Positions 10,774 to 62,359 are shown, numbered from the stretch's first letter. The stretch: DNA of 64,000 nt from Escherichia coli (GCF_024502345.1 NZ_JALDNN010000001.1); one strand, 5' to 3'. Numbers and translations: made by a program. The notes: generated by a model from the letters alone, not told the origin.

Positions 10774-13296
10774 ATGCTACAGATAATTGGTGCGTTAATT
10801 TTACTGGTAATCGGTTTTGTTATTATAAAAGCGTTGTTTAAGGCATCTCTCAATATTCTAGGTGTGATATTAGGATTGGGTGCATTGATTGTTGCAGGCC
10901 CACCTTTATTGGCGGGCTATATTGTAGAGCGCGTAACCTATGCGCTTCACTCACGTTGGCTGCTGGGTGTACCTCTTGCCATAGCAGGAATGGTGATTAG
11001 CTTTATGTGGGGACTTGATGGTAAACATATTGCCTACGAAGCTTATTCATTTGATTCAATGAAGTTTATTTTAACCGCTGCATTTGCCAGTGGCCTGCTT
11101 GCAGTACCTGTACAAACCAAGGCTATTCTACAAAACGGGCTTATACCAGCCGATATCAATGCCAAACTTAAAGAGTATTATTGCTGTTTTTATACATCTT
11201 ACTTTTTGATGGCCTGCTCTGCGGCTACACCGTTTATAGCCTGGCAATATAATATCTCATCTTCACTGATGTGGTGGACAGGATTGCTATACTGGATAGC
11301 AGCCTTACTGACACAGTTCTATGCGGCAAACCAAATTCAGGAACTCAAGAAGTTAACTAATGCCATCAATACAGGGTTAAATGAGCAAAAAGCGATCAAT
11401 AACCAACTTTGGCTGACGGAACTAAAAGAAGGAAGTAACCTCTCAGCAGAATTCGTAGAGACTATCTATCTTAAGTTGGTCTCACAGCATATTTTTCAGG
11501 GCGATACTCGAGAGCAGGATCTGGCTGGTGAAAACTGGCTTTTAAATGATGCCTGGTATGAAAGAAAGATGGCTGAATTTAATGAGCAGTTAAACAGTAA
11601 AATTGTACACTCATCAGATGAGCTAAGAAGCCTTTTTGGTAATAGGCTGAATTTACCCTCTGCTGCGAATGATGATCTCCTGAACCGTTATCTTGATGGT
11701 GGGAACTATTATTCTTTTTCGGATGGTCGAAAATTTGTCTCGTTTCACTATGTCGACGAGCTTTGTACCTGCACTTCATGCGGTTTGAGCGAGATTAAAA
11801 ACGCAAAACACCAGGACGGTTGTGGGAGCCAGGAATGGTATTGCTCTGATATTTGCCGGGAAACGGAAAAACTCTGCATTGAAATTCACAAGCGACCACA
11901 GGCTGAATTTATTTCCAGTGCAGCAACAAACGGTCTGATTCTCATGACGCTCCCGGAGGCCTGGAATACTAACGAAAAAATGTTTGCAGTGGGAGGACAA
12001 GGACATGGTTTTGCAGCCGAACGGGGAAATCATCTTACTGACAAAATCCAACTAAAAGATGCACATATTCTCGGTGATGATAATGCGAAAAATGGTGCAG
12101 ACAGGCTGGTTAACGGTTCAGAGATTCAGACCAAATACTGTGCAACCGCTGCACGTAGCGTCGGTGCTGGTTTTGACGGACAAAACGGTAATTATCGCTA
12201 TTATGACAGTAACGGAACCCCAATGCAGTTAGAGGTTCCGAAAGACCAGTATTCGAAAGCGCTTGAAACGATGGAGAACAAAATTCGCGATGGCAAAGTC
12301 CCCGGCGTTACCGATCCTGCAGAAGCCACAAAACTTGTACGTCAGGGACACCTGACTTATAGCCAGGCACAAAACATTACTAAGTTTGGCACGTTCGAAT
12401 CTATCACTTACGACATTGCGGAAGGATCTATCATCAGCCTCGCAGCTGGAGGTATCAGCTTCGGTCTGACAGCTTCTATTTTCTACCTCAATACCGGCGA
12501 TCGTAAGGCTGCGTTGCAAACGGCAGCAATACAGGCAGGTAAAACATTTACCCGCACACTGACAGTTTATGTGACGGTACAGCAATTACACCGTATCAGT
12601 GCCGTTCAGGGGTTACTTAAAAATATTGATTTTGCCGCTGCCAGCCCGACAGTTCGTAATGCGCTTCAACAGGGAGTCGGAGCTAACAATCTCAACTCCC
12701 TTAACAAGATGATGCGTGGCACACTGGTTACCTCTTTCGCACTGGTCGCCGTGACCACTGGTCCGGATATGATCAAAATGGTGCGAGGTCGTATTTCTGG
12801 GGCACAGTTTATAAAAAATCTGGCAGTTACTTCATCTGGTGTGGCTGGGGGTGCAATTGGTTCTATTGCTGGCGGAATGATGCTTAGTCCATTAGGTCCT
12901 TTCGGTGCTTTAGCAGGACGCGCAGCTGGTGGCTTGTTAGGCGGTATGATTGCCACAGCGATTTCCAAAAAAATAGCGGGTGCACTGGTTGAAGACGACC
13001 GAGTAAAAGTGCTGGCTCTCATCCAGGAACAGGTTACATGGCTTGCAACAAGTTTCATGCTTACAGCACACGAACTTGAAAACCTGAACGCGAATCTGGC
13101 AACAGTAATTGACCAAAAAACCCTGGAGGTTATCTTCGCCGCAAAAGAGCAAGACCGAGCAACGGCCAATATGCTGATTAAACCACTTGTAGTAAGTGTG
13201 GTTAAGCAACGACCGGTCCTGAGCTATGAACAATCGCAAATCTGCGAAATGGTCGATCAGCTTGATACATCGGTTTCATTATCTGCTGTTGCATAA
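10774..13296 (+). CDS. gene C: hypothetical 840-aa polytopic membrane protein with a Cys cluster and C-terminal Gly-zipper region
   Basis: About six predicted TM helices in residues 1-190; Cys cluster CTCTSCGLSEIKNAKHQDGCGSQEWYCSDIC; C-terminal GGAIGSIAGGMMLSPLGPFGALAGRAAGGLLGGMIATAIS; RBS AAGGA upstream. Confidence 0.65.
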   Translation: MLQIIGALILLVIGFVIIKALFKASLNILGVILGLGALIVAGPPLLAGYIVERVTYALHSRWLLGVPLAIAGMVISFMWGLDGKHIAYEAYSFDSMKFILTAAFASGLLAVPVQTKAILQNGLIPADINAKLKEYYCCFYTSYFLMACSAATPFIAWQYNISSSLMWWTGLLYWIAALLTQFYAANQIQELKKLTNAINTGLNEQKAINNQLWLTELKEGSNLSAEFVETIYLKLVSQHIFQGDTREQDLAGENWLLNDAWYERKMAEFNEQLNSKIVHSSDELRSLFGNRLNLPSAANDDLLNRYLDGGNYYSFSDGRKFVSFHYVDELCTCTSCGLSEIKNAKHQDGCGSQEWYCSDICRETEKLCIEIHKRPQAEFISSAATNGLILMTLPEAWNTNEKMFAVGGQGHGFAAERGNHLTDKIQLKDAHILGDDNAKNGADRLVNGSEIQTKYCATAARSVGAGFDGQNGNYRYYDSNGTPMQLEVPKDQYSKALETMENKIRDGKVPGVTDPAEATKLVRQGHLTYSQAQNITKFGTFESITYDIAEGSIISLAAGGISFGLTASIFYLNTGDRKAALQTAAIQAGKTFTRTLTVYVTVQQLHRISAVQGLLKNIDFAAASPTVRNALQQGVGANNLNSLNKMMRGTLVTSFALVAVTTGPDMIKMVRGRISGAQFIKNLAVTSSGVAGGAIGSIAGGMMLSPLGPFGALAGRAAGGLLGGMIATAISKKIAGALVEDDRVKVLALIQEQVTWLATSFMLTAHELENLNANLATVIDQKTLEVIFAAKEQDRATANMLIKPLVVSVVKQRPVLSYEQSQICEMVDQLDTSVSLSAVA

Positions 13297-13485: not shown

Positions 13486-13640
13486 TTATTTCAGTCGTTT
13501 ACCTGCATCATCAACGACTTTCTCGCCGTCTTCCTTAGCAAATGCACCTTTTTGCGCATCCGGAAGAATATCCAGTACCACTTCGGAAGGACGGCACAGA
13601 CGCGTTCCCAATGGTGTCGCCACAATCGGGCGATTAATCA
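13486..13640 (-). pseudogene. arsC: arsC (arsenate reductase) remnant with internal deletion
   Basis: Minus-strand reading gives MSNITI then, after a gap, ...INRPIVVTPLGTRLCRPSEVVLDILPDAQKGAFAKEDGEKVVDDAGKRLK, matching recalled ArsC termini. Confidence 0.7.
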
Positions 13641-13676
13641 GGATCGGATAGTGATGTTGCTCATATCAATATCTCA

Positions 13677-13886
13677 TTACAAAGTGAAAGAGAGACGTAG
13701 CGCCAGCGCGGCCAGCGTTACAAACAGCACAGGCAGAGTCATGATGATCCCGGTGCGGAAATAGTATCCCCAGGTGATGGTCATGTTCTTCTGTGAAAAG
13801 ACATGCAGCCAGAGTAGCGTTGCCAGGCTACCAATAGGTGTAATTTTCGGCCCCAGATCGCAGCCAATCACGTTGGCATAAATCAT
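13677..13886 (-). pseudogene. arsB: arsB (arsenite efflux pump) 3'-terminal fragment
   Basis: ...[65 protein letters not shown] matches the recalled ArsB C-terminus. Confidence 0.7.
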
Positions 13887-16800
13887 CGCCTCTTTGATAA
13901 CGCATCATACTGCCAGCGGAATAACTCTCTTCGTCAATACGGCTCTCGCTGTACGCTTACCCATCTAGAGAGGTTTCAGGTGATTATCGATGTCAGAAGA
14001 CTGAATGATTCAGTCGTTTACTTTGAGATAGATCAGAGGTTTTTCACTACCTGTGTTCATCACATGGCTACGAATAGTAGAATCCAAGCATAAATTAACG
14101 CTTAGAAAAGTTGAGCTCATGAGATTCCACCCTGAAGGGCCTTCCATACCCGATATCCTCTTAGAACGCTGTGATACAGGTCGAGTTGTATTTCTCTGTG
14201 GCGCTGGGGTTTCATTACCTTCAGGGATGCCAAGCTTTGTAGAGCTTACCCAGCATGTAATTGAATACTTTGACCCACCACACGATTCAGAAATCATGGC
14301 AGCATTTCGCCCATGGCTTCACGACCAATCTTCAGCTAATGTCCCTCTCGACCAAATTTTCAACCTCCTACATCTGGAATATGGCAAGGATGAGGTGAAT
14401 GCTTTGGTATCAAAGCGTCTGGGGACTGCAAGAACTGATATAGAGATTGGACGTGAGCATGCCCTGATTAAAAGAATTTCCTCAAATCAGAGTGGTGTCC
14501 CACAGATTGTCACAACGAACTTTGACCGACTGTTCGAGGATAACCAAGCGCAAGATAATCTAACTCGATATGTGCCGCCAGCTTTCCCAAATCTGAATTT
14601 CGGTTCGACAATTGAGGGAATAACATATCTTCACGGCCGCCTGGTCGACGAAAATGCTGTAAACCATCCTTATGTGCTGAGCAGTGCAGACTTTGGAAGA
14701 GCATATCTTTCAGAAGGATGGGCGACCAATTTTATTAAGCTTCTTCTGGAACGATACATCGTTGTTTTGGTCGGTTATCAGGCAGAAGACCCACCAGTTA
14801 AATACCTCCTTCAGGGTCTCAATCATGATGGCCAGTATGATCGTTCCAGACTTTATGCATTTGATCGCGGCCTTGCCGAGGATATCGAAGCCAAATGGCG
14901 TGACAGAGGAGTTACAGCCATAGCCTATTCCGATCATCCAGCTCTTTGGAAGACTTTGGAAGCATGGGCTGAGCGAGTAGATGATCCACGTCGATGGCGA
15001 GCTTCTATTATCGCTAAAAGCCAGCAAGATCCGAAAGTTCTAGCACCGTATGAACGTGGTCAACTTGCCCATATACTTCGCACTACACAAGGTGCGAAAT
15101 TGTTCTCTGAAGCTGTTCCTCTTCCCCATCCAGAGTGGCTTTGTGTGATGGATGCAAATATTCGGTCAGCCAAACAGAAGAAAAGATACTACGAACTTGA
15201 TGACAATGATGCAGAGACCTTCGATCCACAAGAAGCTTATGGGCTTGATGACGATCTGCAAGATATCGCTGATGATGAACGTAAACGTGGAGTGAGTAAC
15301 GATAATCTCCTTGAATGGCGCGACGAAGATGATAACCCGTCAGATTACCATCGCTTGGCTGGATGTTTGGAGACAATGCCGAAACGATTGAGCCATCTCA
15401 TGGTCTGGTTCTGCAAATCTCTTGATAGCCCCGTGATGGCTTGGTGGGCTATCCGAAAAATCAGTATTCATCCTCTACTACTACAAAATATTGAACGCAA
15501 TATTGAGCATTCAACATCAATCCACAAACGCGCTCGTCAACTGTGGGGCTTAATTCTTGAACATCATAAAGATCCCCGCAATCGTCGTTATGACGTCGAT
15601 TGGTACGACTTAAAAGCTCGAATTACAAAACAAGGCTGGACAGCTGGTGTCTTACGAGAATTTCGTAGGGTAATGACACCCCGATTGGAAAAGAAGTTGC
15701 CGTATGGATTGGGTGAAGTCAGACCGCCAAGCGGCTCCTGGGAGGAAATTCAGTTCAGCGAATTTGGCCAATTTGAAGTTGTGTTCACCGAAAGACATGA
15801 TGACGATTTAGACGTACCTGACAATGTATTACTACAAGTATTTAATGCCTTAGAAGCGCAAATAATAACTGCCTCCGGAATGTTAGAGGATATTGATACG
15901 CACTACTTTCCAAGCCCAAGTTGTTATCCAGAACGTGCGGTTGAAGGAGAAGAACATTTCGCGAAAGGTGCGGAGGTATTAACTTGGTTTGTCCAACTTT
16001 TAGACCGAGTTGTTATGAAGTGGCCAGAATTGGCTAAGGCATACGTAACAACTTGGCCAGTTAAGGAGCCATTTTTCTTCCGAAAGCTTAGACTTTATGC
16101 ATTCAGTAAAAAAGGCGTCTTTGAGGCTGACCGTGTTGCCGAAGAGCTTTTGTCTTTGGATCAAAGTGGATTTTGGGACACAAATATTACCCGCGAACTT
16201 CTTTTTCTGCTCACTGATCGTTGGGAAGAATTCTCGCAAGAAAATCAGAATCGAATTATAGAGCATATATTAACCGGCCCGAACCATTTACTTTATTTGT
16301 CTGAGGAAGACATTCCAAAAGAAAGAGAGATATTAGCAGCTAGATACGCTCGTTATCTCGAACTAAACGGCTGTAAAGTAACCACTATTCATCGTGACCA
16401 ACTAACTGCGATGATTAAAAGAATTCCTGACTGGAATGATGGCTGGGCTACATCTGTTGTCATCAATTGGGGTTCACGGACAGGTTGGGTTCGTACAGAC
16501 GAAAAGCCAGATATAATCTTAGATCTTCCAGCAAACGAAATAATCCCAAAAGTAAAAGAGATACTTAAACGAGAGGATGATAGCTTTACTAGTAGGCAAC
16601 CCTTTGTCGGATTGATAAAAGAAAATCCGCGTAAAGCTTTGTCTGCACTCGCTATTGCAGGGAGAGGCGGTGATTACCCTAAGGAATTTTGGTCGCCAAT
16701 GATAAGTGAGTTACCTATAGATCTTAAACCAAGGGTGAGACGAGTATTCCTGAACCGAATTGTGCGATTGCCAGTTACAGCTTTGGTCGAGTTACGACAT

Positions 16801-17333
16801 ACATTAAGTAACTGGCTTGAACAAAATTTAGCTGCGACTCTTGAATTTGATGAGGATCTCGGGTGGGCAGTTTACGATCATGTCATAGCAGGCATACTGA
16901 GTGGTGGCGCCAGTGCAATACGGAGTAGTTTCGGAGAAGTTATCCGGAATGGAGAAGTTGTAATACAGTCTCGCCGCACGTTCAGTCATGCAATCAATGG
17001 TCCTGTCGGTAAATGTACTCAAGCGCTTTTTCAAGCAATGCCAAGTGAAGAGAAAAAAGCTGGTTCGCTTATTCCTTACTCTATTAAGTCTCGTATTGAA
17101 CATCTTTTTACTGCACCAGGAGAAGGAGCGGACCACGCTATAGCTATAACGTCTCGCAATCTAAATTGGCTAATGTTTGTTGATCCTGCATGGGTAAAGG
17201 AATGGCTTATACCCCTTTTGGATTTAAAACATCCTGCAGCAGAACCAGTATGGAATGGTTATCTTCAGTGCAATGCTATGCCTTCAATTGCAGTAGCTGA
17301 ACTTATTAAACCAGCTTTTCTTAACCTTATCCC

Positions 17334-18390
17334 GGCTTTGTTGAATAAATCAGATTTCGGGTAAGTCTCCCCCGTAGCGGGTTGTGTTTTCAGGCAATAC
17401 GCACGCTTTCAGGCATACCTGCTTTCGTCATTTTGTTCAGCGCTCGTACCAGGGCCATAGCCTCTGCAACCTGACCATCGTAGTCACGCAGTGTCAGTGA
17501 ACCCCCGAACAGCTGTTTTACCCGGTACATCGCCGTTTCCGCTATCGAGCGACGGTTGTAATCTGTTGTCCATTTCCACCGCGCATTACTCCCGGTCATT
17601 CGCTGATTAGCCACTGCACGGTTACGGTCTGCATATTCACCGGGCCAGTAACCCGCACCTTTTCGGGGAGGGATAAGCGCGCTGATTTTCTTACGCCGCA
17701 GTTCATCGTGACATAGCCGGGTATCGTAAGCGCCATCGGCGGCGGCTGACCTGATTTTCCGGTGGGTTTGCCGGATTAACCCGGGGAAGGCCTCTGAGTC
17801 CGTAACGTTGTTCAGCGACAGGTCAGCGCAGATGATTTCATGTGTTTTACTGTCAACGGCGAGATGCAGCTTACGCCAGATACGGCGGCGTTCCTGGCCA
17901 TGCTTTTTGACTTTCCACTCGCCTTCACCGAAGACCTTCAGCCCGGTGGAATCAATTACCAGGTGTGCGATTTCACCCCGGGTGGGCGTTTTGAAACTGA
18001 CATTAACCGACTTTGCCCGCCTGCTGACACAGCTGTAATCCGGGCAGCGTAGCGGAACGTTCATCAGAGAAAAAATGGAATCAATAAAGCCCTGCGCAGC
18101 GCGCAGGGTCAGCCTGAATACGCGTTTAATGACCAGCACAGTCGTGATGGCAAGGTCAGAATAGCGCTGAGGTCTGCCTCGTGAAGAAGGTGTTGCTGAC
18201 TCATACCAGGCCTGAATAGCTTCATCATCCAGCCAGAAAGTTATGGAGCCACGGTTGATGAGGGCTTTATTGTAGGTGGGCCAGTTGGTGATTTTGAACT
18301 TTTGCTTTGCCACGGAACGGTCTGCGTTGTCGGGAAGATACGTGATCTGATCCTTCAACTCAGCAAAAGTTCGATTTATTCAACAAAGCC
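17334..18390 (-). mobile_element. IS903-group element copy B (inverted), 9-bp TSD CCTTATCCC
   Basis: Terminal IRs at 17334..17351 and 18373..18390; CCTTATCCC at 17325..17333 and 18391..18399. Confidence 0.92.
17390..18358 (-). CDS. IS903-group transposase (322 aa), identical to copy A
   Basis: Identical translation to 6097..7065. Confidence 0.9.
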   Translation of the reverse strand: MKDQITYLPDNADRSVAKQKFKITNWPTYNKALINRGSITFWLDDEAIQAWYESATPSSRGRPQRYSDLAITTVLVIKRVFRLTLRAAQGFIDSIFSLMNVPLRCPDYSCVSRRAKSVNVSFKTPTRGEIAHLVIDSTGLKVFGEGEWKVKKHGQERRRIWRKLHLAVDSKTHEIICADLSLNNVTDSEAFPGLIRQTHRKIRSAAADGAYDTRLCHDELRRKKISALIPPRKGAGYWPGEYADRNRAVANQRMTGSNARWKWTTDYNRRSIAETAMYRVKQLFGGSLTLRDYDGQVAEAMALVRALNKMTKAGMPESVRIA

Positions 18391-19152
18391 CCTTATCCCT
18401 TGGATCGAATCTCTTTCTTGGGAAAAAGATTATTCAGTTCGAGCTTCGCAATGGCTTGGCTTAATGAGAATGTTTCACCCTGATGAGCCCTCCAGTCCTT
18501 CCAGGAATGAAATGCGCTCCATATTACGAGCATTATCTGACGAGGCTCGAAATCGTTTTATTTCCTGGTTAGGATTGGTCGGGCAGAAAAACGAGAGTGG
18601 CTGGGTTAAGTATGTGATCCCATTAATCAGAGAGGACTGGCCCAAAGAACGCCAATATAGAACCACGAGCTCTGTAAAAGCATGGATTGGTTTACTTGAC
18701 GATACTGGCGATAAGTTTCCGGAGGTTTACGATTCAGTAAAAACATACTTAGTACCAATCGAGACAATTGATCATTTGTTCTACAGATTCACTCGGGAGC
18801 TCGGTGGTAAAGGAGCAATTGCAGCTATTTTTCCAGAAACCACGCTTGATTTAATGGACAAAATAACACCACTGATATTCACGCGTACATCAGGAGAGCT
18901 GCAGAAGATTCTTGAGCTAATTGAAGATACAGATACAAGTCTGATCAAGGATTCTCGGTACTTACGGCTTATTGCACTGGTTGAGAAAAATTAGCATTTA
19001 TGGTTTTTTACCGTTGTTGATTACTCAGCAACACTTTTCGACATGCCGTAGCGCTTATCGCCTGTTCTTGACTAAGATGAGAAGCAGGCGTTAAAGTTTG
19101 GTTAAAGGAGAACCTCTAACCATTCCTTCTGGAAGAAATAATCTTTGGAGTA

Positions 19153-19881
19153 TTATTGAAATTGCTCAAATATACCATGCAACCCAATAAATTTTATTTT
19201 TAGTGCAGGATCATGCCTTAGAACAGTCTCAAGTGAGTTCCGCTCATAAATTATTGATTGTGCTTGTATTGAGCCGTTCCATGAAGGCAAAAGCAGTAAA
19301 GCAGATGTTTCCAAATCAATACCCCACCAATCGTTAACATAGCAATTTAAAAAATCAACAAGAGCCTTAATCGCAATAAAAGCATCTTTTTCGGTATATG
19401 TTTCAGGATCGAGGGATATACCTGATATATTACTTTTAGCTTGCTCGGAATTAATATTAGACTGGTGTTGATAAGCAATTTTTCCTTCACCCGGTTTAGT
19501 TTCTATTGTATCAGTGAAAATTTTAATCTTAGGATGCACCAATGCATTTCGTTGTGCTATTAATTCTTTTATTATTTGTGTTTGAGTGGTTCCACGAGGT
19601 AAAGACATGTCTTTATGCCATTGAAGAGTATAGTCAAATTTATCAAGTGAAGAGAACCTGTCAATTTGATCTTTTAACTTTTGCGTTATTTCTATAGAAG
19701 ATAAAAATGAGTTAGCTGCAGCCTCAATAGCGTAGTTAATTGAAAGTACACTTGATTTGGCAAGTGTTTTTTTGATGTGTGATTTTTTTGTTGCAGCTGA
19801 TAATTCATAAAGAGTTATTGCATCAGAAAAAAGCTCAAAAAAGCTGTTCTTGGTTATTTCAACTTTTCTTTTCACACGCAA
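19153..19881 (-). CDS. hypothetical 242-aa protein with HEPN-like R-x4-H motif (ELIAQRNALVHP)
   Basis: Motif read from the translation; last gene of an AT-rich three-gene minus-strand cluster. Confidence 0.55.
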   Translation of the reverse strand: MRVKRKVEITKNSFFELFSDAITLYELSAATKKSHIKKTLAKSSVLSINYAIEAAANSFLSSIEITQKLKDQIDRFSSLDKFDYTLQWHKDMSLPRGTTQTQIIKELIAQRNALVHPKIKIFTDTIETKPGEGKIAYQHQSNINSEQAKSNISGISLDPETYTEKDAFIAIKALVDFLNCYVNDWWGIDLETSALLLLPSWNGSIQAQSIIYERNSLETVLRHDPALKIKFIGLHGIFEQFQ

Positions 19882-19965: not shown

Positions 19966-21437
19966 CTATCGAGAATAAGAACTGGGTTTAGGAAAACCAC
20001 CTCTGACGACGACAACAACAATTGCAACTTGAGATTGACCTGTTGGATGAGTGAATACTTCAATATCATCCTCTATTACTCCCACCGGCGCTGATTTTGA
20101 CGTTGATTCCAGAACAACCAAAATACCGATACGCTTACCTAATCCAATGGCATAAGCTGCTGTTTGATCGAAATATTTTTGAAAATCCTTGGGAAAAAGA
20201 ACCTTATTATTTTCAACTTTTAGTTCTATCGAAATGTCTTCAAATGTGAGATCCGTTATCCCGCCAGCAGCCTCTGGATGGCCTTGTAATTTCTCGCCAA
20301 TCTCATTCCTACTTCTAAGCATTTCGGCTATTTTACGCTGAAATTTTTGCTCTGATGTGCCAGCAATAAATAAACTAGCTTTAAGAGCTTGTGCTGCAAC
20401 ATTTCCTAAGCCGCCAAGTATAACCATTGTATTAGCAATGTCATCTGAGTGTAATCCAGGGAAAGCTCGTAATATGTTACGAATTTTTATAAGATGCCTA
20501 TCGACGTTTGAAAATCCAGTTAATGGAGCTTGAGCGGAATCACTCCCTTCAAGTAGTAAGCGCCTATGTCCTACGATAGCAATATTTTGGCAATTACTTA
20601 AATTGTCAAACTCGGCAGCATATAGGAATTCGTAAGGTCTCGAGCCAAATGAATTTGCCACTTCCAAGACGACACGACCGATCCCCTTCAGTGTGAAGGG
20701 GCCTTCCCCCTCTGGTTTCTCAAATCTAAAATCAGGCAACCAGTCTCGCTCACGAGCATCAATTGTCACTGGCTTTAATGAGAGGAAATTTGCACTTTTT
20801 GGCCAATTTGAAACCCTGACCTCTATGTTAAGGTCATAAGCCGTACCCGGCTTAAGATAATTCCATTGCTGAGCTGGTTCCCCATCAATATCAAACTTTA
20901 GAAATGCAACTGTCGATTCTTGTGTTTTATTCTCTTTTGTCCCTTTACTAGATATTCCTTGCCTAATCCCCTCAATATTTTTATCGCGAAGATTTGCGAA
21001 TAAGAGTAGTGGCAATGACCAGCTTGTTAACTGGTCTTGTATTTGTTTTAATGAATCTAATTTACTGATTGAACGGACTTGCTCTATAAATTCATTAAAT
21101 TGTTTGTTCTCCGAGAGACTCGTCGTCATGTCGATCTCTGATGCTTTTAATTGTGCTGAATTTAAAAACCTTTGAGCATCAGTCTCAGCATTACGTATAG
21201 CATGTTTCCACTCAGCTAGAGTTACAAATATAGTCATTGCTATATAATATGCACGATATTGATCTTCAACATATCCCTGACCGAGCTCATCGAGCGTTTC
21301 ATTGAGCTTTTGACACGCTTCTTTAAGTTTCACCAAGTCATTCGGAATGGACTTGAGTGCACCATCCAACGCTGCTGCAATCTCAACCCTCGGAGAAAAA
21401 GCTTGGCGGAAAATCTCGAAATTTGGCTCGTTCTTCA
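19966..21437 (-). CDS. hypothetical about 490-aa protein with possible C-terminal PD-(D/E)xK nuclease-like motif (ITDLTFEDISIELK); start uncertain (21437 or 21480)
   Basis: ORF overlaps the upstream 857-aa gene by 55 bp or more; D...E-x-K pattern near the C-terminus. Confidence 0.5.
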
Positions 21438-23956
21438 TATTCTTTCTCCAACTCAGCCGTAAGACCATTCCATTTTTCAATTAAGTCATTATAGGGTTCG
21501 CAAACACTTATGGCATGTTCAATGCTAGCTGCTTCTGTAACTAAAGCAGCCTTAAGTTTCCATTGTGTATTTCTTTCATCATTTGGAATTTCTTCCAGTA
21601 GTTCCTTTAAACAAACATTTGCAGTTACGTTATCACCACACTTGCTTAACGCAGCCACGTACACTAATGCTTCAATAAATTGTTGAGGTTTAAATGGTTT
21701 CAGAGCATTGAATGCTTTTTGGAGATCGTCTTTACAATTTCGAAGCTCATCATGTGGCGCTCTTAATATCACTGAGATGCAGTCATCAATAGAAATACTG
21801 CGAGTATACTCATCCTGAATTGCTTTGAGTGCGACTTTGACAAAACCGGGAATATCATCAAAATGAAAACGCAATCGATTGATAGCATCATAAAGTGCAC
21901 TTCCTTCTAAAATTAATAATATATTAGAAAGAAGCAATCCAATTTTCCCCTTTCTCTCTTCATCTGATAAGCAAAGAGAAGAAAAAACGTCAATGCATTC
22001 TACAATGAAATTATCTTTTTTATCTTGTTGAATATAATAGCAAATTAGATTCCATAGCCGGGATCTCACAAGTCCCCGTTTCTCCTCAGGAAAAGATCTA
22101 CGGCTCAAAGCGCGAACAGCATACTGATGCACCATAACATATTGATCTAATAGCAAGACTGAATATGCTTCGAAGAATAAATCTGGGAAATTCTTCACTA
22201 AATCATAGGGAACATTTTCCCACGCTTGTACGGCACGTGCTCGAATCAATGTACTCTCATCCATAAGAGCACGATACCAATCGGAGAGCACTAGTGTTAG
22301 GCTGTCAATACCAGTTAATAACTTAGAAACATGGGCAATCATGTTCCCACGCATTTGAGTTTGTTCTTCTGGTAAGCTTCTATAGAGATGAAGAAAATCA
22401 TCGATTCCTTCACTCCCTCTAGATTTAGCTCCAATCGCAGCCCATTCAATCAATGCACCCTGTAAGCCATCAATAGCATTACGCTTATTACTTTTATCTA
22501 AATGATCTAGAAAACTCTCATTTATTTCTATGATTTTTTCTTTATTCAACGCCTCAAATTTCTCGCTTAGCGTTGCAGCCGCTCCGATCAAATCGTCAAA
22601 ATTATCAACTGCAAGCTCAGCAAATTCGTCCCAAGAGTGTCTAAAGAATTGTCCTGCATCATCCATGCTATCCTCTGGATTTTCCACAGCAGCCCAGAGC
22701 AAACGCCTAAAAGCTATTTTTTGTGTCTTTCCTGTTTTACTTTTTTTTCTATAGTTATTTCGCAGTACAGATCTGTAAGCTCTATTGGCCTCATGTCTCC
22801 CAATATCATCTTTGTCAGCAAGATAGGATTGAATAACTTTATCGCTTTCATCGGGAAATCTATCTAAGTATTTCGTAGCAGCCTCCCGAAGAAAGAAAAG
22901 AATGCTGCTATCTCTCCGCTCCTCCGGGAGTAGAGTCCGTCGACGCATCAGCTTAGCAAATATACTTCTAATATGTCTTAGAAGCAGCTCATCATCATCC
23001 GATGCAATAATTATCTCAATAGCAAATTGAAATTTTCCCCGGTGAGTATCTTTTATGTATTCATCAACAACATCACAGATATCAGCTTGTCTTTTTTTAA
23101 AAAGTGACTGAATGGGGCCTTTATTAAGTACTTTTCGCTCAAATGTGCCAATCATCATTCCAGGAGGAGATTCAACAGCCATTCTAACAAAGTGGTAAAG
23201 GACTTTTAAGAAATCATCTTCAGATAGATTCTCTGCTTCCAAGAGGATTGCTTCTATAGCTAGTGGACAATATTCGAAGTTGTTTATTAAATATACTGAA
23301 ATTGCCAGTTTTTCCGCTTGTGATAATTCAGTTCTTATTAAAGCTTTTGCTGCTGGCATTGAATATGGTAATTTCTCATGTAACACTGCAGGCAACAAGT
23401 GTTCAATTATTTTACTTGTAAATGTCTCAGGTGCCAGATTAGCAAGTTGTTCCAAACGGGGATCGTTGTTCTCTATATCCTCTTGATCGAGTTCATCAAG
23501 CAAATCAAGCACAAACGTTTCTTCTAGAGTAAGTGAAAGACGTAATACTGCTCGTTCTTGTTGTCTATTGAGCTGCTTCTGCTTTCTCTGCCTTTCTTCT
23601 TCTTTGCGAGCCAAATTTCGTTCTTCGGCAGATTTTTCTCTTGGGCCTACAAACTCTAAAATATTGGGAAATCCCACCGGAACCCGTTGATTACAATGTT
23701 TACAGTTCTGTTTATAGAAGCTGTAAACCGAGTCTTCCAGCAGCCAGCTAAGCATTGAACTTTGCTTAACAAATTTGCATTGAACTCCCATGTGACCAAT
23801 GGGTAACCCTGTTTCAGCCTCAATCATGCCTCTCCCCTCTGATCGAATGAATTCAGAGTGAGAACACCAGTTACTAAGTAGGTGTACAGCACGGAGATTT
23901 CGTTGACCAGCTTCGATTGCCTCTTCAAATCTTTTTTTATCTTCAAAATCATCCAT
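21383..23956 (-). CDS. hypothetical 857-aa protein with N-terminal Cys/His cluster and long helical repeat region
   Basis: N-terminal ...NWCSHSEF...HMGVQCKF...CKHCNQ...; very AT-rich coding region; no Walker A seen. Confidence 0.6.
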   Translation of the reverse strand: MDDFEDKKRFEEAIEAGQRNLRAVHLLSNWCSHSEFIRSEGRGMIEAETGLPIGHMGVQCKFVKQSSMLSWLLEDSVYSFYKQNCKHCNQRVPVGFPNILEFVGPREKSAEERNLARKEEERQRKQKQLNRQQERAVLRLSLTLEETFVLDLLDELDQEDIENNDPRLEQLANLAPETFTSKIIEHLLPAVLHEKLPYSMPAAKALIRTELSQAEKLAISVYLINNFEYCPLAIEAILLEAENLSEDDFLKVLYHFVRMAVESPPGMMIGTFERKVLNKGPIQSLFKKRQADICDVVDEYIKDTHRGKFQFAIEIIIASDDDELLLRHIRSIFAKLMRRRTLLPEERRDSSILFFLREAATKYLDRFPDESDKVIQSYLADKDDIGRHEANRAYRSVLRNNYRKKSKTGKTQKIAFRRLLWAAVENPEDSMDDAGQFFRHSWDEFAELAVDNFDDLIGAAATLSEKFEALNKEKIIEINESFLDHLDKSNKRNAIDGLQGALIEWAAIGAKSRGSEGIDDFLHLYRSLPEEQTQMRGNMIAHVSKLLTGIDSLTLVLSDWYRALMDESTLIRARAVQAWENVPYDLVKNFPDLFFEAYSVLLLDQYVMVHQYAVRALSRRSFPEEKRGLVRSRLWNLICYYIQQDKKDNFIVECIDVFSSLCLSDEERKGKIGLLLSNILLILEGSALYDAINRLRFHFDDIPGFVKVALKAIQDEYTRSISIDDCISVILRAPHDELRNCKDDLQKAFNALKPFKPQQFIEALVYVAALSKCGDNVTANVCLKELLEEIPNDERNTQWKLKAALVTEAASIEHAISVCEPYNDLIEKWNGLTAELEKEYEERAKFRDFPPSFFSEG

Positions 23957-25331
23957 TTAGATAACACCCTTATAAGGAACATGTACTCATCTAAAATGCT
24001 GTTACCGGATTATTATACCTAAAACAATGAATGCTGTGTATTATGAAATGTGATATAAGTCAATTAGTTACATATAAAAACCAACTCACATCCAAAAGGA
24101 TAGTATTTCGAGGTTTGTAGCATCATTAAATGTGAACTTATTTATCGCCCCCTCAAGTTAACTAATAAATAAGTTATAATTTACATATACTTCTGGAATT
24201 TAGAAACCTTATATCTAATAGTTGAGTAAGTTAATAATCAACATGAGTGTGATTCATAAAAAAAATAATTATTATTTTCAGCCCCTCCATTATGGAGGAG
24301 CAATAATAGTATAGTTTTCCTGTATTCCTAACGATCCAGTTAGGCTTAGAGAAATCTAATTATGAAGCACTCCTGAGAGCAACCCTTCCAACTTTATCAA
24401 TATAATCCGCATACCACTGCATCATCTCTCTCCTGCCTTCCAAATACAGCGCATGGTTGTACGTCCCGCGAATCGCATTCTTATCGACATGCGCAAGCTG
24501 GGTTTCAATCCATGCGGTATTGAACCCTTCCTCATGCAAAATCGTACTCATCGTGTGGCGGAAACCATGCCCCGTTACCTTCCCCGTGTACCCAATCCGC
24601 TTAAACACCTGATTAATACTCGCTTCGCTCATTGTTTTGCGGGGATCATTCCTCCCAGGAAACACCAGAGGATATTGCCCAGACATCACTTTGAGCTGCT
24701 GTACGATCTCCAGCGCTTGGGTAGAGAGGGGCACCAGGTGAGGCCGTTTCATCTTCATGCGCTCTGCAGGTATTTCCCACACCGCTTTTTCAAGATCAAA
24801 CTCACTCCAGAAAGCACCTCGAAGCTCACCGGTGCGAACCCCCGTAAGGATCAGCAAACGTGCGGCAAGAACAACCAGCGGGCTGCCTGTATAGCCAGAA
24901 AGAGCTTTAAAGAAATCTGGTAACTCCTCAACGGTAAGGAAGGGATAATGCTTCGATTCATGCCCTGACATCGCGCTGGTTAGATCCGCAGCCGGATTGT
25001 ATTCCGCACGACCGGTAACTATGGCGTAGCGAAAGACTTCGCTGCAGCGCTGGCGAACTTTCTTGGCCTTCTCTGTCGCACCACGGCTTTCCATTCGACG
25101 CAGTACATTCAACAGAACAAGAGGCTTAATTTCATTGACTGGCTGCTGACCGATATAGGGAAAAATATCTTTATTTAAAGCTTCGATAATGTCCGATGCA
25201 TACCCTTCTGACCATCTGCTCACCTTCGTACCGTGCCACTCAAGCGCCACAGACTGGAACGTATTATGATCTTACCCAGCAATAGTGGACACGCGGCTAA
25301 GTGAGTAAACTCTCAGTCAGAGGTGACTCAC

Positions 25332-25631
25332 ATGACAAAAACAGTATCAACCAGTAAAAAACCCCGTAAACAGCATTCGCCTGAATTTCGCAGTGAAGCC
25401 CTGAAGCTTGCTGAACGCATCGGTGTTACTGCCGCAGCCCGTGAACTCAGCCTGTATGAATCACAGCTCTACAACTGGCGCAGTAAACAGCAAAATCAGC
25501 AGACGTCTTCTGAACGTGAACTGGAGATGTCTACCGAGATTGCACGTCTCAAACGCCAGCTGGCAGAACGGGATGAAGAGCTGGCTATCCTCCAAAAGGC
25601 CGCGACATACTTCGCGAAGCGCCTGAAATGA
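25332..25631 (+). CDS. insE: IS3 OrfA (InsE)
   Basis: [54 protein letters not shown]... matches recalled IS3 InsE. Confidence 0.9.
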
Positions 25632-26494
25632 AGTATGTCTTTATTGAAAAACATCAGGCTGAGTTCAGCATCAAAGCAATGTGCCGCGTGCTCCGGGTGG
25701 CCCGCAGCGGCTGGTATACGTGGTGTCAGCGGCGGACAAGGATAAGCACGCGTCAGCAGTTCCGCCAACACTGCGACAGCGTTGTCCTCGCGGCTTTTAC
25801 CCGGTCAAAACAGCGTTACGGTGCCCCACGCCTGACGGATGAACTGCGTGCTCAGGGTTACCCCTTTAACGTAAAAACCGTGGCGGCAAGCCTGCGCCGT
25901 CAGGGACTGAGGGCAAAGGCCTCCCGGAAGTTCAGCCCGGTCAGCTACCGCGCACACGGCCTGCCTGTGTCAGAAAATCTGTTGGAGCAGGATTTTTACG
26001 CCAGTGGCCCGAACCAGAAGTGGGCAGGAGACATCACGTACTTACGTACAGATGAAGGCTGGCTGTATCTGGCAGTGGTCATTGACCTGTGGTCACGTGC
26101 CGTTATTGGCTGGTCAATGTCGCCACGCATGACGGCGCAACTGGCCTGCGATGCCCTGCAGATGGCGCTGTGGCGGCGTAAGAGGCCCCGGAACGTTATC
26201 GTTCACACGGACCGTGGAGGCCAGTACTGTTCAGCAGATTATCAGGCGCAACTGAAGCGGCATAATCTGCGTGGAAGTATGAGCGCAAAAGGTTGCTGCT
26301 ACGATAATGCCTGCGTGGAAAGCTTCTTTCATTCGCTGAAAGTGGAATGTATCCATGGAGAACACTTTATCAGCCGGGAAATAATGCGGGCAACGGTATT
26401 TAATTATATCGAATGTGATTACAATCGGTGGCGGCGGCACAGTTGGTGTGGCGGCCTCAGTCCGGAACAATTTGAAAACCAGAACCTCGCTTAG
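25628..26494 (+). CDS. insF: IS3 OrfB (InsF) transposase, DDE domain
   Basis: [32 protein letters not shown]... 288 aa; overlaps orfA in the -1 frame as in IS3-family elements. Confidence 0.9.
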
Positions 26495-26980
26495 GTCTGT
26501 GTCCATATTACGTGGGTAGGATCATTATTGAGCTGCACATCACGAACCAGCTTTTCTTCTTTCTTGGCAAACGATGGATCGATACCCTCGGCCAGCTTTT
26601 TCTTGGCTTCATCGCGTAGTGCCCTCGCTTGAGCAAGGGACACTGCCGGATAAACGCCAAAAGCCATACGCTTCTCTTTTCCATTGAAGCGATATTTCAT
26701 TCGCCAGTATCGAGAACCAGAGGGAACGACTTCAAGATACAAACCAGCACCATCTGCCAGCTTATAGGCTTTCTCTCTGGGTTTAGCTGCATCTACCTGT
26801 CGCGCATTTAGCTTCATTGGGGGCATCTCCCTGGACCGAACACAGAATGCCCCCACTTATGCCCCCAACTGTAACTTGATTCCGGTTGAGTCCAGTTGAT
26901 AACAGGAGATAAAATACGGGCTAGAAACCGCAGTATACGGGCTTTTAGTTGATTTCGGTAGACTTGGGAAGAGTTTGAAA

Positions 26981-27056
26981 TGGTGCCGATAATAGGAGTC
27001 GAACCTACGACCTTCGCATTACGAATGCGCTGCTCTACCAACTGAGCTATATCGGC
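26981..27056 (-). tRNA. thrW: tRNA-Thr (anticodon CGU), thrW
   Basis: Reverse complement GCCGATATAGCTCAGTTGGTAGAGCAGCGCATTCGTAATGCGAAGGTCGTAGGTTCGACTCCTATTATCGGCACCA. Confidence 0.9.
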
Positions 27057-51100: not shown

Positions 51101-53246
51101 ATCACTTCAAAAAATTGGGATGTGTTTCCCCAAATCATCTATATCTTCCCAGCCTTATGCACCAAAAATAACGGCGCAAATAGTTAACAGATAGAATATC
51201 TGGCAATTTATGTTCCACTTTCCAGGCTTGCCTGTAATCGGGGATAATAGAAATATGTTCCATCAATTTTTTAAGTTCCATTTTGTCCCCCTTAATTATG
51301 CAATGAGTATTTGATCATGTATAAGCAATGAAAAACAGCTTTAGGTAATAAGGAACACCTCAATTATTGAACATAAAATGCGAATTATTTAGTACAAAAA
51401 AAACAGCATTACGTGATTTTTCCCTGGGAGTACAGTGTGAAGTTTCCGGCATGGCGGGATGCGGATGGGTTTGAACTGGGGTGAATAGGCACTACATGTC
51501 TACATTTTCCCGGTCACCAACCCCTCAATCTTATGAACTTAACCTCGGCTCACCGTTTTCGATTCCATCCAATAAATGACCCGGTTGGATGTGGGCTGAT
51601 CGCCAACAACTTTGCCATCTGCAGAGATTAGCTTCAGCTCTTTATTAGCCTCATCACCGAAGTAAATCATGCGGTAGCGAAAATAACCGCCCCAGGGTTC
51701 ACGTCCACCCAGCGAACTTTGCATAAACCAGGCGCGGGAGTCGTGAACCTGGTCATCATAGAGGGCCAGTAATTCAGCGCATGGCTGAGTACGCGTTCCC
51801 GTTCCCAGTGAATCAATAAAAAATTGTGGATAGAGTCCGTCTCCCATAGCCTTAATTTGCTGATATTCTTTTGCTTCATCATCGCCATTAATCAGATACA
51901 CCGGATATTTAGGAATGACATCCACAAGAATCTGAATGGCTTTCTCCATGACGCTGCCGTTAATATCGCGCGTCCATCCTTTATAATCGCTCTGAAATTC
52001 TCGGGCTGCCTCTCGCAACTGATACTGAGCATTGGTTGGGTCAAGGATAGGAATGCCCTGATTACTTTCATCAAGTGTGCCATTCCCTTTCTGCTTGTTC
52101 GCCCGCTCTTTTTCAATATTTTCCATTTGTTCTTTACGCGCTTTAGCCTCTTTATCAAGTCCATCTTTATCCAGCTGTGGCGCCTTAATATAAAAAGGTT
52201 GCACAAGAAGGCTGTTATTCGCATAGCGACCGATACGCCAGGCGGTGATCCAGCCGATCTGATCGCTAATTGCGCTTTCAAGAACCTGGGCAAGTTGATA
52301 GGAGTGATAACCTTCCCTCGTATCAATCATTTCTTCTGTACCCTGCAAGGTGGTGTTCAGCAGCGTTTGTCGCCAGATGTTGAAGCGTTTTGTTAATGAA
52401 TTAGCAATCGTAAATTCCTTTACGCTAGAAGGACTCATAATTCGCAGAGGCGACACACCTTTTATTAATGGAGTAACAAATTTAGAATAAACAGCAAGTG
52501 GTGCTCCTGAATCAAATGCAGCAAGATACATATCATGCAGTGCTATCTGAGAAAGAATTTCGCCTGAGTCACCACAGGACTTCCCCTGATCGCGAACGGG
52601 ATAGCCACCACCGACATCAGAGTGCATCCCCGGATAGATAATTTCCGTCTGGACGACGGATTGAATCCAGCGGAAAGCACAGCCGCTGCTCATGCGCGGC
52701 AACGAAGTGGCGGCAGCATTTAATCAGGCCGGGAAACTGCCTCTCATCAGGGAGTTGCTGAGTACTATCGGCCCATCCCATATGACCGGCAGCGCCCGGT
52801 AAAACATGCGCCGCCCCCACAGAAGCTACGGTATCCAGCAGCCCCAAAAACTCAATACTGACAGCTAACCCGGCCAGCATCACCTGTTGCTCCTGCGGGC
52901 AAGCTAACTGAGTCAACCAGTTAACAAAAGTTCGTGCTTCCGCTGCGCCACGGGAAAATCCGTAGATAAACAGCTTTACGTTTAGCAGGCGCGGACTGGC
53001 TTGCTCTAACAGTCCCTGTAATTTTTCCAGGTAGGGGTTAATCACATTGCGACGATTCACTTCACCAGTCATAGGCCAGGGAGCGCGCATAAGAGGAATG
53101 TGCTCTTTTGCCACATTATCATCCAGTCGCTTATGGGAAGGGTCAATGGAATAGTTCAGGGCATCCACGAGGCGTAATAATGCCCAATTAATTCGATCTT
53201 CACCACCAGTAGCGAACTCCAGCCCGCTGTTGCTGTAATCCATTTC

Positions 53247-54303
53247 GGCTTTGTTGAATAAATCGAACTTTTGCTGAGTTGAAGGATCAGATCACGTATC
53301 TTCCCGACAACGCAGACCGTTCCGTGGCAAAGCAAAAGTTCAAAATCACCAACTGGCCCACCTACAATAAAGCCCTCATCAACCGTGGCTCCATAACTTT
53401 CTGGCTGGATGATGAAGCTATTCAGGCCTGGTATGAGTCAGCAACACCTTCTTCACGAGGCAGACCTCAGCGCTATTCTGACCTTGCCATCACGACTGTG
53501 CTGGTCATTAAACGCGTATTCAGGCTGACCCTGCGCGCTGCGCAGGGCTTTATTGATTCCATTTTTTCTCTGATGAACGTTCCGCTACGCTGCCCGGATT
53601 ACAGCTGTGTCAGCAGGCGGGCAAAGTCGGTTAATGTCAGTTTCAAAACGCCCACCCGGGGTGAAATCGCACACCTGGTAATTGATTCCACCGGGCTGAA
53701 GGTCTTCGGTGAAGGCGAGTGGAAAGTCAAAAAGCATGGCCAGGAACGCCGCCGTATCTGGCGTAAGCTGCATCTCGCCGTTGACAGTAAAACACATGAA
53801 ATCATCTGCGCTGACCTGTCGCTGAACAACGTTACGGACTCAGAGGCCTTCCCCGGGTTAATCCGGCAAACCCACCGGAAAATCAGGTCAGCCGCCGCCG
53901 ATGGCGCTTACGATACCCGGCTATGTCACGATGAACTGCGGCGTAAGAAAATCAGCGCGCTTATCCCTCCCCGAAAAGGTGCGGGTTACTGGCCCGGTGA
54001 ATATGCAGACCGTAACCGTGCAGTGGCTAATCAGCGAATGACCGGGAGTAATGCGCGGTGGAAATGGACAACAGATTACAACCGTCGCTCGATAGCGGAA
54101 ACGGCGATGTACCGGGTAAAACAGCTGTTCGGGGGTTCACTGACACTGCGTGACTACGATGGTCAGGTTGCAGAGGCTATGGCCCTGGTACGAGCGCTGA
54201 ACAAAATGACGAAAGCAGGTATGCCTGAAAGCGTGCGTATTGCCTGAAAACACAACCCGCTACGGGGGAGACTTACCCGAAATCTGATTTATTCAACAAA
54301 GCC
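53247..54303 (+). mobile_element. IS903-group element copy C, 9-bp TSD ATCCATTTC
   Basis: Terminal IRs at 53247..53264 and 54286..54303; ATCCATTTC at 53238..53246 and 54304..54312. Confidence 0.92.
53279..54247 (+). CDS. IS903-group transposase (322 aa), identical to copies A and B
   Basis: Identical translation. Confidence 0.9.
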   Translation: MKDQITYLPDNADRSVAKQKFKITNWPTYNKALINRGSITFWLDDEAIQAWYESATPSSRGRPQRYSDLAITTVLVIKRVFRLTLRAAQGFIDSIFSLMNVPLRCPDYSCVSRRAKSVNVSFKTPTRGEIAHLVIDSTGLKVFGEGEWKVKKHGQERRRIWRKLHLAVDSKTHEIICADLSLNNVTDSEAFPGLIRQTHRKIRSAAADGAYDTRLCHDELRRKKISALIPPRKGAGYWPGEYADRNRAVANQRMTGSNARWKWTTDYNRRSIAETAMYRVKQLFGGSLTLRDYDGQVAEAMALVRALNKMTKAGMPESVRIA

Positions 54304-54659
54304 ATCCATTTCACCTATCTTGGGAAATGGTGTGCCTACACCCGGTATATAGTAGTTAAAATATCCCTGTTCTTCTGCGTTCTGATAGGTCGTATGAAAC
54401 AGTTTGGCAATATTGGTTGGGTGTCCAGGAGTGTCATTATATTCATTATTATTTGTACCATCAAAAAACAGACTAATATGCAGACTTTGATTACACGTAA
54501 AGCCAATTCTAAATCCAGCCTGTTTACTACAGTTGGTTTTGTGCTCTTCTGTTTTATTGATTTGTTTTAGGTAGTTCGCGTTTACCTGCGCTTCAGATAA
54601 TATTAATCGCCCATCTTCAGGGAACAACGGGGGGGCATAACACGGAAAAGCCAGACCAC

Positions 54660-55202
54660 TTATTTTGCTGGACATGTTGCAGGTTCCTTCATCTCGCGGG
54701 GTTCTTTGATAGGATAATTCGGTGTGCCATAGCCCTCGCAGACGGTTGTCACTTTAATCTGATTACACGGCAGAAAATGAACGGTCAGGCCACAACGTTC
54801 AGCGCCGTATTCCGGGATGTCAACAATTACTTTATATTTTTGATAATTTGCAGCATGTTTAGCATAAGCATCTTCTTCATAGCCAAAACCTTCTTTTTTC
54901 ATTGCAATAGGTTCAAGGGGGTTCGGGTCTACTTCCCACTCGATCCGGGCTTTTAATCCAGAATGCCACTTCTTTGGTAACATTATGCAGCAATATCCAC
55001 CGCCCAAACCATGGACCCGATAACCATTTACGGTGAACCAATTAATACTGATACCTTTAATATGATTTATTGCCCGGAGATCACCAGCAGTATAATCGTC
55101 GTAATTAGCTGCTGAGCAACCCGAAATCACCATCAAAATTAACACCAGACAGCCTTTAACTACTTTTGTTATATTCATTCCATTTCTTATTTTGCTGGAC
55201 AT
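54660..55202 (-). CDS. putative lipoprotein (lipobox ISGCSA), possibly effector-associated (immunity or chaperone-like)
   Basis: Signal peptide with lipobox Cys; immediately upstream of the Tle1-like gene; shares the MSSKI start and about 20 bp with it. Confidence 0.45.
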   Translation of the reverse strand: MSSKIRNGMNITKVVKGCLVLILMVISGCSAANYDDYTAGDLRAINHIKGISINWFTVNGYRVHGLGGGYCCIMLPKKWHSGLKARIEWEVDPNPLEPIAMKKEGFGYEEDAYAKHAANYQKYKVIVDIPEYGAERCGLTVHFLPCNQIKVTTVCEGYGTPNYPIKEPREMKEPATCPAK

Positions 55203-56138
55203 GTTGCTGGTTCTTTTACTTTGAGAGATTTTAATTGATGGGTATTGTTTCTACGACAATAAAGTTTTGACAAAGAAGCAAATAAAATGCATATCTTTCG
55301 ATTGTCACACATTGGAATATCGACAGAGCATTGATGATATTACGCAAAATATATTGCAGCCAAGTGAACTGACATTACGATCGAACACAAATGCAACATG
55401 ATGGATACTACCATTACATGTCGAGCTTGATTTTCCGTTTATTTCACGATTATCTCTTGATATTAACAGCTACGGACTTTTAAACAGATAAATCTCCCCG
55501 TACATCACCACAATATTATCCTTCGAAGTCCCGCAAAGCTCCGAAATATTTCGCGTCATTGGCCCTGAAAGCAATATCAAGACAGTGGGCAAAATAGCTT
55601 TCCTGACTGAGTTCACTGTGGGATGCAAATAAAGTTTCATCCTAACCCTAAAAACAGAGAGAAACGTCGCGCGCTCTCCTATTCATAAAAAATCCCTTTT
55701 ATATCAGTATGTTGTGAGCACTTACACCCGAGACTGGATCGTTTTGCCTTTCATGGGAGAATGATTAAGGGCGCTAAAGTATCATCCTAATTTTCGCCCA
55801 GGCTCGAAAAATACGGTAAATGGTGAAAATAAAGATTCATCCTTTTCCGATGTTGCCCGTTCCAACACGTAAGCAGTCAGTCAGAAAAAACACATAGATC
55901 CAATCCCTAGCGAGCATTGAGCTCTCTCATCCGTGCCAACTGCTCCAACCCTTGGACGCCCTAAATGCTTACCCAAAAAAATCAACACCTTCTTTTAAAA
56001 ACACAATCAAAAATGACACCCTTATATCCATTTAACCTAAACAGCCTTCCCCCCACTGCACTAGCTAGGGCTCGTAGTTCGGCGCAAGGCTGAAGTCGCT
56101 TGGCTGCTTCGCTGTGCAGATCCATGACCCACTTTCCA

Positions 56139-57302: not shown

Positions 57303-57309
57303 GTTGAAA

Positions 57310-62342: not shown

Positions 62343-62359
62343 GGTGGGATTCCTTGTGT

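Follow-up and report, generated by a model that had tools for sequence, protein, structure and literature searches.

DSR2 of Bacillus subtilis (PDB 8K98, 8WKT and others) is a single-protein defence system of about 1,005 amino acids (aa), in which an N-terminal SIR2 NADase is joined to a large alpha-solenoid C-terminal sensor; it senses the tail tube protein and depletes nicotinamide adenine dinucleotide (NAD+). DSR1 also works as a single gene and depletes NAD+ on infection, and in the case of phi29 this depletion is transient and the culture does not collapse (Garb et al., bioRxiv 10.1101/2021.12.14.472415). Phage detection by DSR1 is the task of its C-terminal domain, which then switches on the SIR2 domain at the N-terminus; phage NARP1 counters this defence (10.1101/2024.02.11.579819). 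For the tested Escherichia coli protein, EcDsr1 (WP_029488749.1), a 2026 preprint (PMC12803255) names the major capsid protein as the only trigger and reports that mutations in the effector abolish defence; according to the same work, the EcDsr1 sensor is homologous to that of Avs7, both recognise the phage major capsid protein, and 9,097 proteins have a sensor of the Avs7 type. Here we describe a gene of this kind that is split by an insertion sequence (IS), IS903B, in a stretch of 64,000 nucleotides (nt) of E. coli DNA (GCF_024502345.1, NZ_JALDNN010000001.1), hereafter the window, whose positions are counted from its first letter. We hold with high confidence that it is a DSR1-family antiphage gene inactivated by a recent and simple insertion of IS903B.

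The listing of open reading frames (ORFs) gives one ORF at 14053-17364 (+), followed by an antisense one at 17390-18358 and by another (+) ORF whose end is at 18994. Deletion of 17334-18399 in silico, which joins 17333 to 18400, yields a sequence of 3,876 nt, divisible by 3 and with a terminal stop only; the reading frame is continuous across the excised element, as a preliminary description of the locus had stated. The rejoined ORF has 1,269 codons from an ATG at 14119 or 1,291 from a GTG at 14053. We take the ATG as the conserved start because full-length homologues nearly always have about 1,269 aa and because the alignment with a protein named Dsr1 by the NCBI Prokaryotic Genome Annotation Pipeline (PGAP) begins at Met1; all residue numbers given here start from it. 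The in-frame upstream extension (14053..14118, +) is an open frame whose GTG is the start used by PGAP/RefSeq in strain PSJ-29 (coding sequence of 3,876 nt, 1,291 aa; locus record positions 554-4429). The homologues and canonical Dsr1 begin at the Met of MRF or MQF, and the extension is probably not translated. In strain Z226-5 the RefSeq start is Met82, which gives a protein of 1,210 aa that is devoid of the GAGVS motif (locus record positions 9297-12929). The size of about 1270 aa and the end at 18994 that had been proposed for the gene are thus retained, and its start is moved from 14053 to 14119. A scan of 13600-19200 for promoters and terminators found sites no more numerous than in shuffled controls.

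The 5' part of the gene (14119..17333, +), delimited by the ORF, the homologue starts and the Pfam match, consists of codons 1-1071 and two bases of the codon for Pro1072, and covers the SIR2_2 domain and about 80% of the sensor. The insertion point lies after this second base, and 197 codons are detached, where the preliminary description had counted the last 200: the loss of the C-terminus is real and the count is slightly smaller. The detached 3' part (18400..18994, +) starts with the last base of codon 1072, runs through codons 1073-1269 to the stop codon, and is recognised as such from the frame, the Dsr1 alignment and a structural model. By codon mapping, the present-day gene product consists of residues 1-1072 followed by nine IS-derived residues (ALLNKSDFG; with the stop codon, 17334..17364, +), and ends at 17364 after 1,081 residues.

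The inserted element, which had been placed in the IS903 group, is more precisely an IS903B copy of 1,057 bp (17334..18390, -) with its transposase gene antisense to the DSR1-like gene. Its terminal inverted repeats, GGCTTTGTTGAATAAATC, are perfect over 18 nt (17334-17351 and 18373-18390), with a match that extends to 33 nt at 79% (17334-17366 / 18358-18390), and the element is 98.5-99.4% identical to copies annotated as 'IS5-like element IS903B' on many enterobacterial plasmids. The transposase ORF (17390..18358, -) is intact, counts 322 codons and scores 357 bits against NCBIfam transpos_IS5_2, from model position 1 to 289 of 289. The size, the 18-bp inverted repeats, the 9-bp duplication and the single DDE transposase of the IS903 group of the IS5 family are all present; IS903 and IS903B have the same length, inverted repeats, 9-bp duplication and single transposase ORF, and the window copy is a typical one. 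Repeat finding places a perfect 9-bp direct repeat, CCTTATCCC, at 17325..17333 and 18391..18399, abutting both ends of the element (a specified 9-mer matches by chance with a probability of about 4^-9 = 4e-6), which bears out the intact duplication reported earlier; at the empty site of Z226-5 it occurs as a single copy.

The window holds three IS903B copies (6065-7121, 17334-18390 and 53247-54303). Over the 1,057 bp their sequences are 100% identical, and a perfect 9-bp duplication of its own flanks each copy (TCTCAAAAG, CCTTATCCC and ATCCATTTC, respectively). They are therefore independent simple insertions and neither a composite transposon nor a rearrangement scar. The three copies indicate a recent burst of IS903B in this genome.

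A megablast search of 5,426 complete E. coli genomes retrieved the DSR1-like gene from six, always on the chromosome. In five of these genomes the two halves are joined in an intact gene, and the sixth has a 5'-truncated copy; the query containing the IS reached at least 80% coverage in 0 of the 5,426 genomes, and the insertion is found in none of them. The five intact-gene chromosomes carry a single CCTTATCCC and differ from the excised window sequence by 2-3 mismatches in 4,035 bp (3 mismatches in 4,035 nt for Z226-5, 2 in 4,035 nt for PSJ-29). These natural empty-site alleles confirm the in-silico reconstruction. The two differences from PSJ-29, at window positions 15869 and 17249, both fall on a second codon position and are non-synonymous (I584T and A1044V), which is too few for a test of relaxed selection; the first is at a variable position, and residue 1044 is Ala in 63 of 80 relatives. 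Because the duplication is perfect, the intact alleles are near-identical and the three IS copies of the window are 100% identical, the insertion is recent, in agreement with the earlier impression of the locus. Independent damage by other elements is seen elsewhere: in E. coli ET881 the same gene is 5'-truncated beside IS1X2 (record positions about 3288-6310), and in Enterobacter hormaechei pRHBSTW-00844_2 (6810-11142) ISSen4 lies at its flank, with another IS3-family element inside it. This last record, labelled as a plasmid, may be chromosomal DNA because proA, proB and phoE are on it.

The size and motifs of the rejoined protein had been considered to fit either DSR1 or DSR2; the profile searches decide for DSR1. 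With PADLOC, two Dsr1 models match at 7.8e-86 (best stretch, residues 649-1268 against model positions 636-1242 of 1,248) and 3.7e-80 (best stretch, residues 1-341), and the other matches are weak generic SIR2 models (E>=1.6e-5, residues 21-147). No Dsr2, ThsA or HerA-type model of PADLOC is found on the rejoined protein at E<=0.01. The sole match in NCBIfam is also Dsr1 (NF041818, E=2e-113), with a best stretch at residues 460-1265 against model positions 449-1261 of 1,263. A tblastn search of plasmids retrieved loci named by PGAP 'anti-phage defense-associated sirtuin Dsr1', among them WP_053264524.1, the E. coli example used for comparison here, which scores 1,674 bits on NF041818. BLASTP aligns residues 1-1259 of the rejoined protein with residues 1-1263 of WP_053264524.1 (E=2e-63) in a colinear manner across the insertion point, and the segments MxFxxxGPxIPDxLL, GAGxSxPxGxPxF, VTTNFDxLF and YLHG are shared by both. 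Because this alignment runs straight across the insertion point, the C-terminal fragment is a true continuation of the gene; the continuity expected after excision is thereby verified. By these comparisons, the rejoined protein belongs to the DSR1 family, in which it is full-length but divergent. It resembles DSR1 as a single polypeptide (1,269 versus 1,263 aa) colinear from Met1 to the C-terminus, with a SIR2_2 N-terminus, a helical-repeat sensor and a location in a defence island.

A word-indexed search returned 2,787 relatives, the top 120 of which are full-length, 62-95% identical, and hosted by Salmonella, Serratia, Yersinia, Pseudomonas and others. A full HMMER scan whose query was the sensor by itself (residues 333-1269) retrieved 1,656 representative clusters at E<=1e-3; among the best 150 of these 1,656 clusters, almost all proteins are 1,240-1,280 aa long and match at about 335-1270. 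Judged from these searches, the subfamily is large and gammaproteobacterial, with hundreds of clusters at 50% identity.

The N-terminal part carries the canonical SIR2 NAD-binding motifs noticed in the preliminary description, and each of them could be located and placed in an alignment of 80 family members, from which conservation was scored. The glycine-rich motif GAGVS (residues 28-32; 14200..14214, +), predicted to bind NAD, aligns with GAGIS of Dsr1 and GAGVS of KomC, and its G, A, G and S are nearly invariant. Codon mapping and alignment with Dsr1 place TTNFD at residues 132-136 (14512..14526, +), with N134 as the candidate catalytic Asn, and YLHG at residues 170-173 (14626..14637, +), with H172 as the candidate catalytic His; all five residues of TTNFD and the L, H and G of YLHG are conserved in at least 90% of the members. 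An H171A mutant is among the solved DSR2 entries of the PDB. In a Pfam run on residues 1-1182 of the rejoined protein, SIR2_2 (residues 129-268, E=4e-13) is the only SIR2-type family matched. A single-sequence search of the PDB with the rejoined protein gave no match; at E<=0.01, a family-profile search found the SIR2 domains of KomC (9e-9), DSR2 (1.9e-5) and 8w9l, a SIR2-like protein of 381 residues, but not a single housekeeping sirtuin (CobB, SIRT). A housekeeping sirtuin of the CobB/Sir2 deacylase type, with its classical domain of about 230-280 aa (Pfam SIR2, PF02146) and a gene in the core genome, was accordingly rejected: the match is to SIR2_2 only, the PDB profile search returns no classical sirtuin, and the gene is found in 6 of 5,426 genomes, in a mobile island. 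The domain is of the defence type, with two antiphage NADases, KomC and DSR2, and 8w9l as its nearest solved relatives.

The C-terminal portion of about 940 aa is, in an AlphaFold2 model of residues 333-1269, an alpha-solenoid sensor. This model is almost purely made of helical repeats (mean predicted local distance difference test score, pLDDT, 89.2; predicted template modelling score, pTM, 0.71), and its first part (residues 333-1072; 15115..17333, +) has generic HEAT/ARM-like matches only. Foldseek comparison of the sensor model with the PDB returned only generic HEAT/ARM solenoids (karyopherins and CAND1, for example) at TM<=0.3, and is uninformative beyond the alpha-solenoid fold. In the model, the insertion point sits between two helices, and the last 12 helices or so are cut off. 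Six sensor columns are invariant in the 80-sequence alignment, and two of them, W1152 and P1153 in the segment REDWPKE, belong to the detached piece.

Among the other described systems, DSR2 shares with the window protein the general architecture of a SIR2 N-terminus and a solenoid sensor. It was nevertheless rejected as the family of the window protein, since no PADLOC Dsr2 model is found and the PDB profile match does not reach beyond the SIR2 domain (profile positions 16-230); furthermore, DSR2 is not among the best Foldseek matches listed for the window sensor. Thoeris ThsA, in which SIR2 is joined to a SLOG domain and ThsB is the partner, and SIR2-HerA, where a HerA ATPase gene is adjacent, were set aside as well, with no ThsA or HerA model match and with an arsC remnant, a hypothetical gene of 242 aa and OloB/OloA as neighbours. 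The likeness to Avs7 is indirect: the window sensor is a helical-repeat solenoid homologous to the Dsr1 sensor, which is itself homologous to the Avs7 sensor (PMC12803255). Unlike Avs7, a STAND NTPase, the window protein has no STAND NTPase domain, and the two are likened via Dsr1.

In our main reading, an integrase-bearing island at tRNA-Thr/proA of the chromosome has as part of its cargo a stand-alone antiphage gene of the DSR1 family. The intact protein joins an N-terminal SIR2_2 domain, a predicted NAD+ glycohydrolase (GAGVS, N134, H172), to the alpha-solenoid sensor of about 940 residues. By analogy with characterised DSR1, this sensor is expected to bind a phage structural protein during infection; trigger binding would release the SIR2 domain to hydrolyse NAD+, thus starving the phage of NAD+. 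The intact protein is accordingly predicted to deplete NAD+ upon sensing a phage protein. IS903B inserted after the second base of codon 1072, duplicated CCTTATCCC and split off the last 197 sensor residues, whose loss most likely abolishes sensing or folding; the product of 1,081 residues is most likely unable to sense or to fold properly, and the defence provided by the system would be lost.

Several points weigh against this interpretation. The NF041818 score of 380.1 bits is far under the curated equivalog cutoff of 1,400 bits, and identity to WP_053264524.1, the closest stand-in for the tested protein, is only 22%, falling to 19% over the sensor. Our search found no experimentally tested member of the subfamily, whose database names are all 'SIR2 family protein' or 'hypothetical'. 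With such an identity and a score below the cutoff, function, and above all trigger specificity, is not simply transferable from DSR1. Moreover, the truncated product keeps an intact SIR2 domain and 740 of the 937 sensor residues, and its loss of function is something we infer rather than have demonstrated; the window allele also has two private non-synonymous changes, I584T and A1044V. Because of the score, we regard the protein as a family-level homologue in a divergent subfamily and not as an equivalog of the E. coli-type Dsr1, and the same score explains why the PGAP name is merely 'SIR2 family protein'. It differs from DSR1 in this low identity, in belonging to a distinct gammaproteobacterial subfamily and in being a pseudogene here. 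Its trigger is likewise uncertain because the sensor is merely about 19-22% identical to that of canonical Dsr1.

Since about 79% of the sensor, together with the SIR2 domain, still stands in frame behind the native 5' region, and since the gene has no further disabling mutations, one may ask whether the truncated product of 1,081 residues is still active, either with altered or relaxed triggering or as a leaky constitutive NADase, in which case the insertion would modify the system rather than inactivate it. We consider this very unlikely. The detached 197 residues form an integral and confidently modelled part of the solenoid, hold two of the six invariant sensor columns, and belong to a region kept by almost all full-length homologues; a constitutive NADase would be toxic and counter-selected, and the destruction of the gene by other ISs elsewhere fits plain loss. 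It is scarcely probable at all, in our view, that the protein has a different sirtuin chemistry (protein deacylase or ADP-ribosyltransferase) or a housekeeping role instead of being an NAD+-depleting effector. Some sources do name relatives 'NAD-dependent SIR2 family protein deacetylase'; against these names stand the assignment to Pfam SIR2_2 and not to the classical sirtuin family, the PDB profile matches limited to KomC, DSR2 and 8w9l with no CobB or SIRT at E<=0.01, the NCBIfam search that yields Dsr1 alone, and the position of the gene in a mobile island between defence systems, in 6 of 5,426 E. coli genomes.

In Serratia and E. coli Z226-5, and partly in E. hormaechei, the SIR2 gene forms a conserved block with genes for proteins of 240, 490 and 857 aa, which raises the question of whether the SIR2 protein acts within a multi-gene system that also involves the downstream 242-aa gene (19153-19881) and/or the Olokun-like genes (19966-23956). 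Such a system is highly improbable, given that the downstream genes are on the opposite strand and that OloA and OloB by themselves are identified as Olokun. A convergent hypothetical gene of about 230-240 aa does lie 3' of both the window gene and canonical Dsr1, but the two are unrelated (BLASTP E=1.0) and there is none in Pseudomonas, so that it was rejected as a conserved partner. The 66%-identical homologue of Pseudomonas resinovorans has other neighbours, namely a YobI-like ATPase and a pantoate ligase, and DSR1 itself works as a single gene (bioRxiv 10.1101/2021.12.14.472415). In this comparison of a few sampled loci (Pseudomonas versus Enterobacterales), a stand-alone gene is supported because the Pseudomonas neighbours are unrelated and the downstream gene is unlike that of canonical Dsr1. 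We thus retain a stand-alone DSR1-family gene, inactivated by IS903B, as the best reading of the locus.

This reading makes the locus a clear and datable case of a predicted antiphage NADase gene silenced by an IS, with a matching intact allele in other strains for comparison. It also flags a large DSR1 subfamily for which NCBI annotation says only 'SIR2 family protein', with an inconsistent start codon, and the intact allele could reveal whether DSR1-type sensors so divergent still recognise major capsid proteins. Current understanding is left unchanged because defence systems of this type are familiar, and so is this way of losing them, which is a commonplace one. Two broader readings are conceivable, and taken jointly we judge them rather doubtful. 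The sensor of the subfamily, about 20% identical to that of the E. coli-type Dsr1, may recognise a phage protein other than the major capsid protein and thereby define a distinct trigger specificity class. The IS disruption may reflect selection to shed a costly, or plasmid- and phage-excluding, immunity gene rather than neutral decay; ISs have struck two of the three defence or candidate defence systems of the island as well as its integrase, the identical IS903B copies represent three insertions in the window, and the DSR1-like gene is IS-damaged in two more hosts. Precise excision between the 9-bp repeats might undo the disruption.

The region proA-proB-phoE-crl-frsA, found in 5,406 of the 5,426 E. 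coli genomes at up to 99.5% identity, identifies the window as E. coli chromosome. The island that houses the DSR1-like gene lies between the left part of the window and tRNA-Thr(CGT) (26981-27056), and it also encodes a WYL regulator and a tyrosine integrase. Compared with the island of Z226-5, that of the window has six IS insertions. Besides IS903B in the DSR1-like gene, the candidate defence gene PDC-M09A contains two elements, IS903B at 6065-7121 and an IS110-family element at 7488-8849; its remnant ORF is at 8702-9292, as compared with an intact gene of 846 bp in Z226-5, and PDC-M09B (9292-10737; PADLOC 1.7e-213) looks intact. An IS5 copy of 1,195 bp (2432-3626), with TTAA as its duplication, sits in the gene for the island's AlpA-family regulator, and an IS3-family element of about 1,256 bp (about 25267-26524) interrupts the tyrosine integrase gene, a hit that probably immobilises the island. 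Just 5' of the DSR1-like gene, near 13648-13654, a deletion of 240 bp with respect to Z226-5 (record 8409-8648) lies in an arsC / truncated arsB remnant.

On the other side of the DSR1-like gene, the minus strand carries the Olokun-like OloA (21383-23956; 2.9e-77) and OloB (19966-21480; 4.8e-58), followed by a gene of 242 aa with no family match, known from the ORF listing (19153-19881). The Olokun-like module is apparently intact, and the block of three genes also adjoins the DSR1-like gene in Serratia and in E. coli Z226-5; the 242-aa gene may be an unrecognised Olokun accessory. In the segment at about 52620-55202, the IS903B copy at 53247-54303 interrupts an ORF of about 356 codons (-) with a GFSRGA lipase-like motif, which we take to be reminiscent of Tle1/DUF2235 type VI effectors and which is adjoined by a Tli1a-family immunity gene (54660-55202; NCBIfam 6.8e-60). 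Finally, the end of the window (56000-64000) has a guanine-cytosine content of 0.60-0.67, against about 0.45-0.52 elsewhere, and encodes DegP/HtrA-like, HtpX-like, PAS-GGDEF and KefB/C-like proteins; the IS21-family istB and istA genes come after these DegP/HtrA-like to KefB/C-like genes, and the block resembles the distal part of the locus of heat resistance / transmissible stress-tolerance locus, to which it may correspond.

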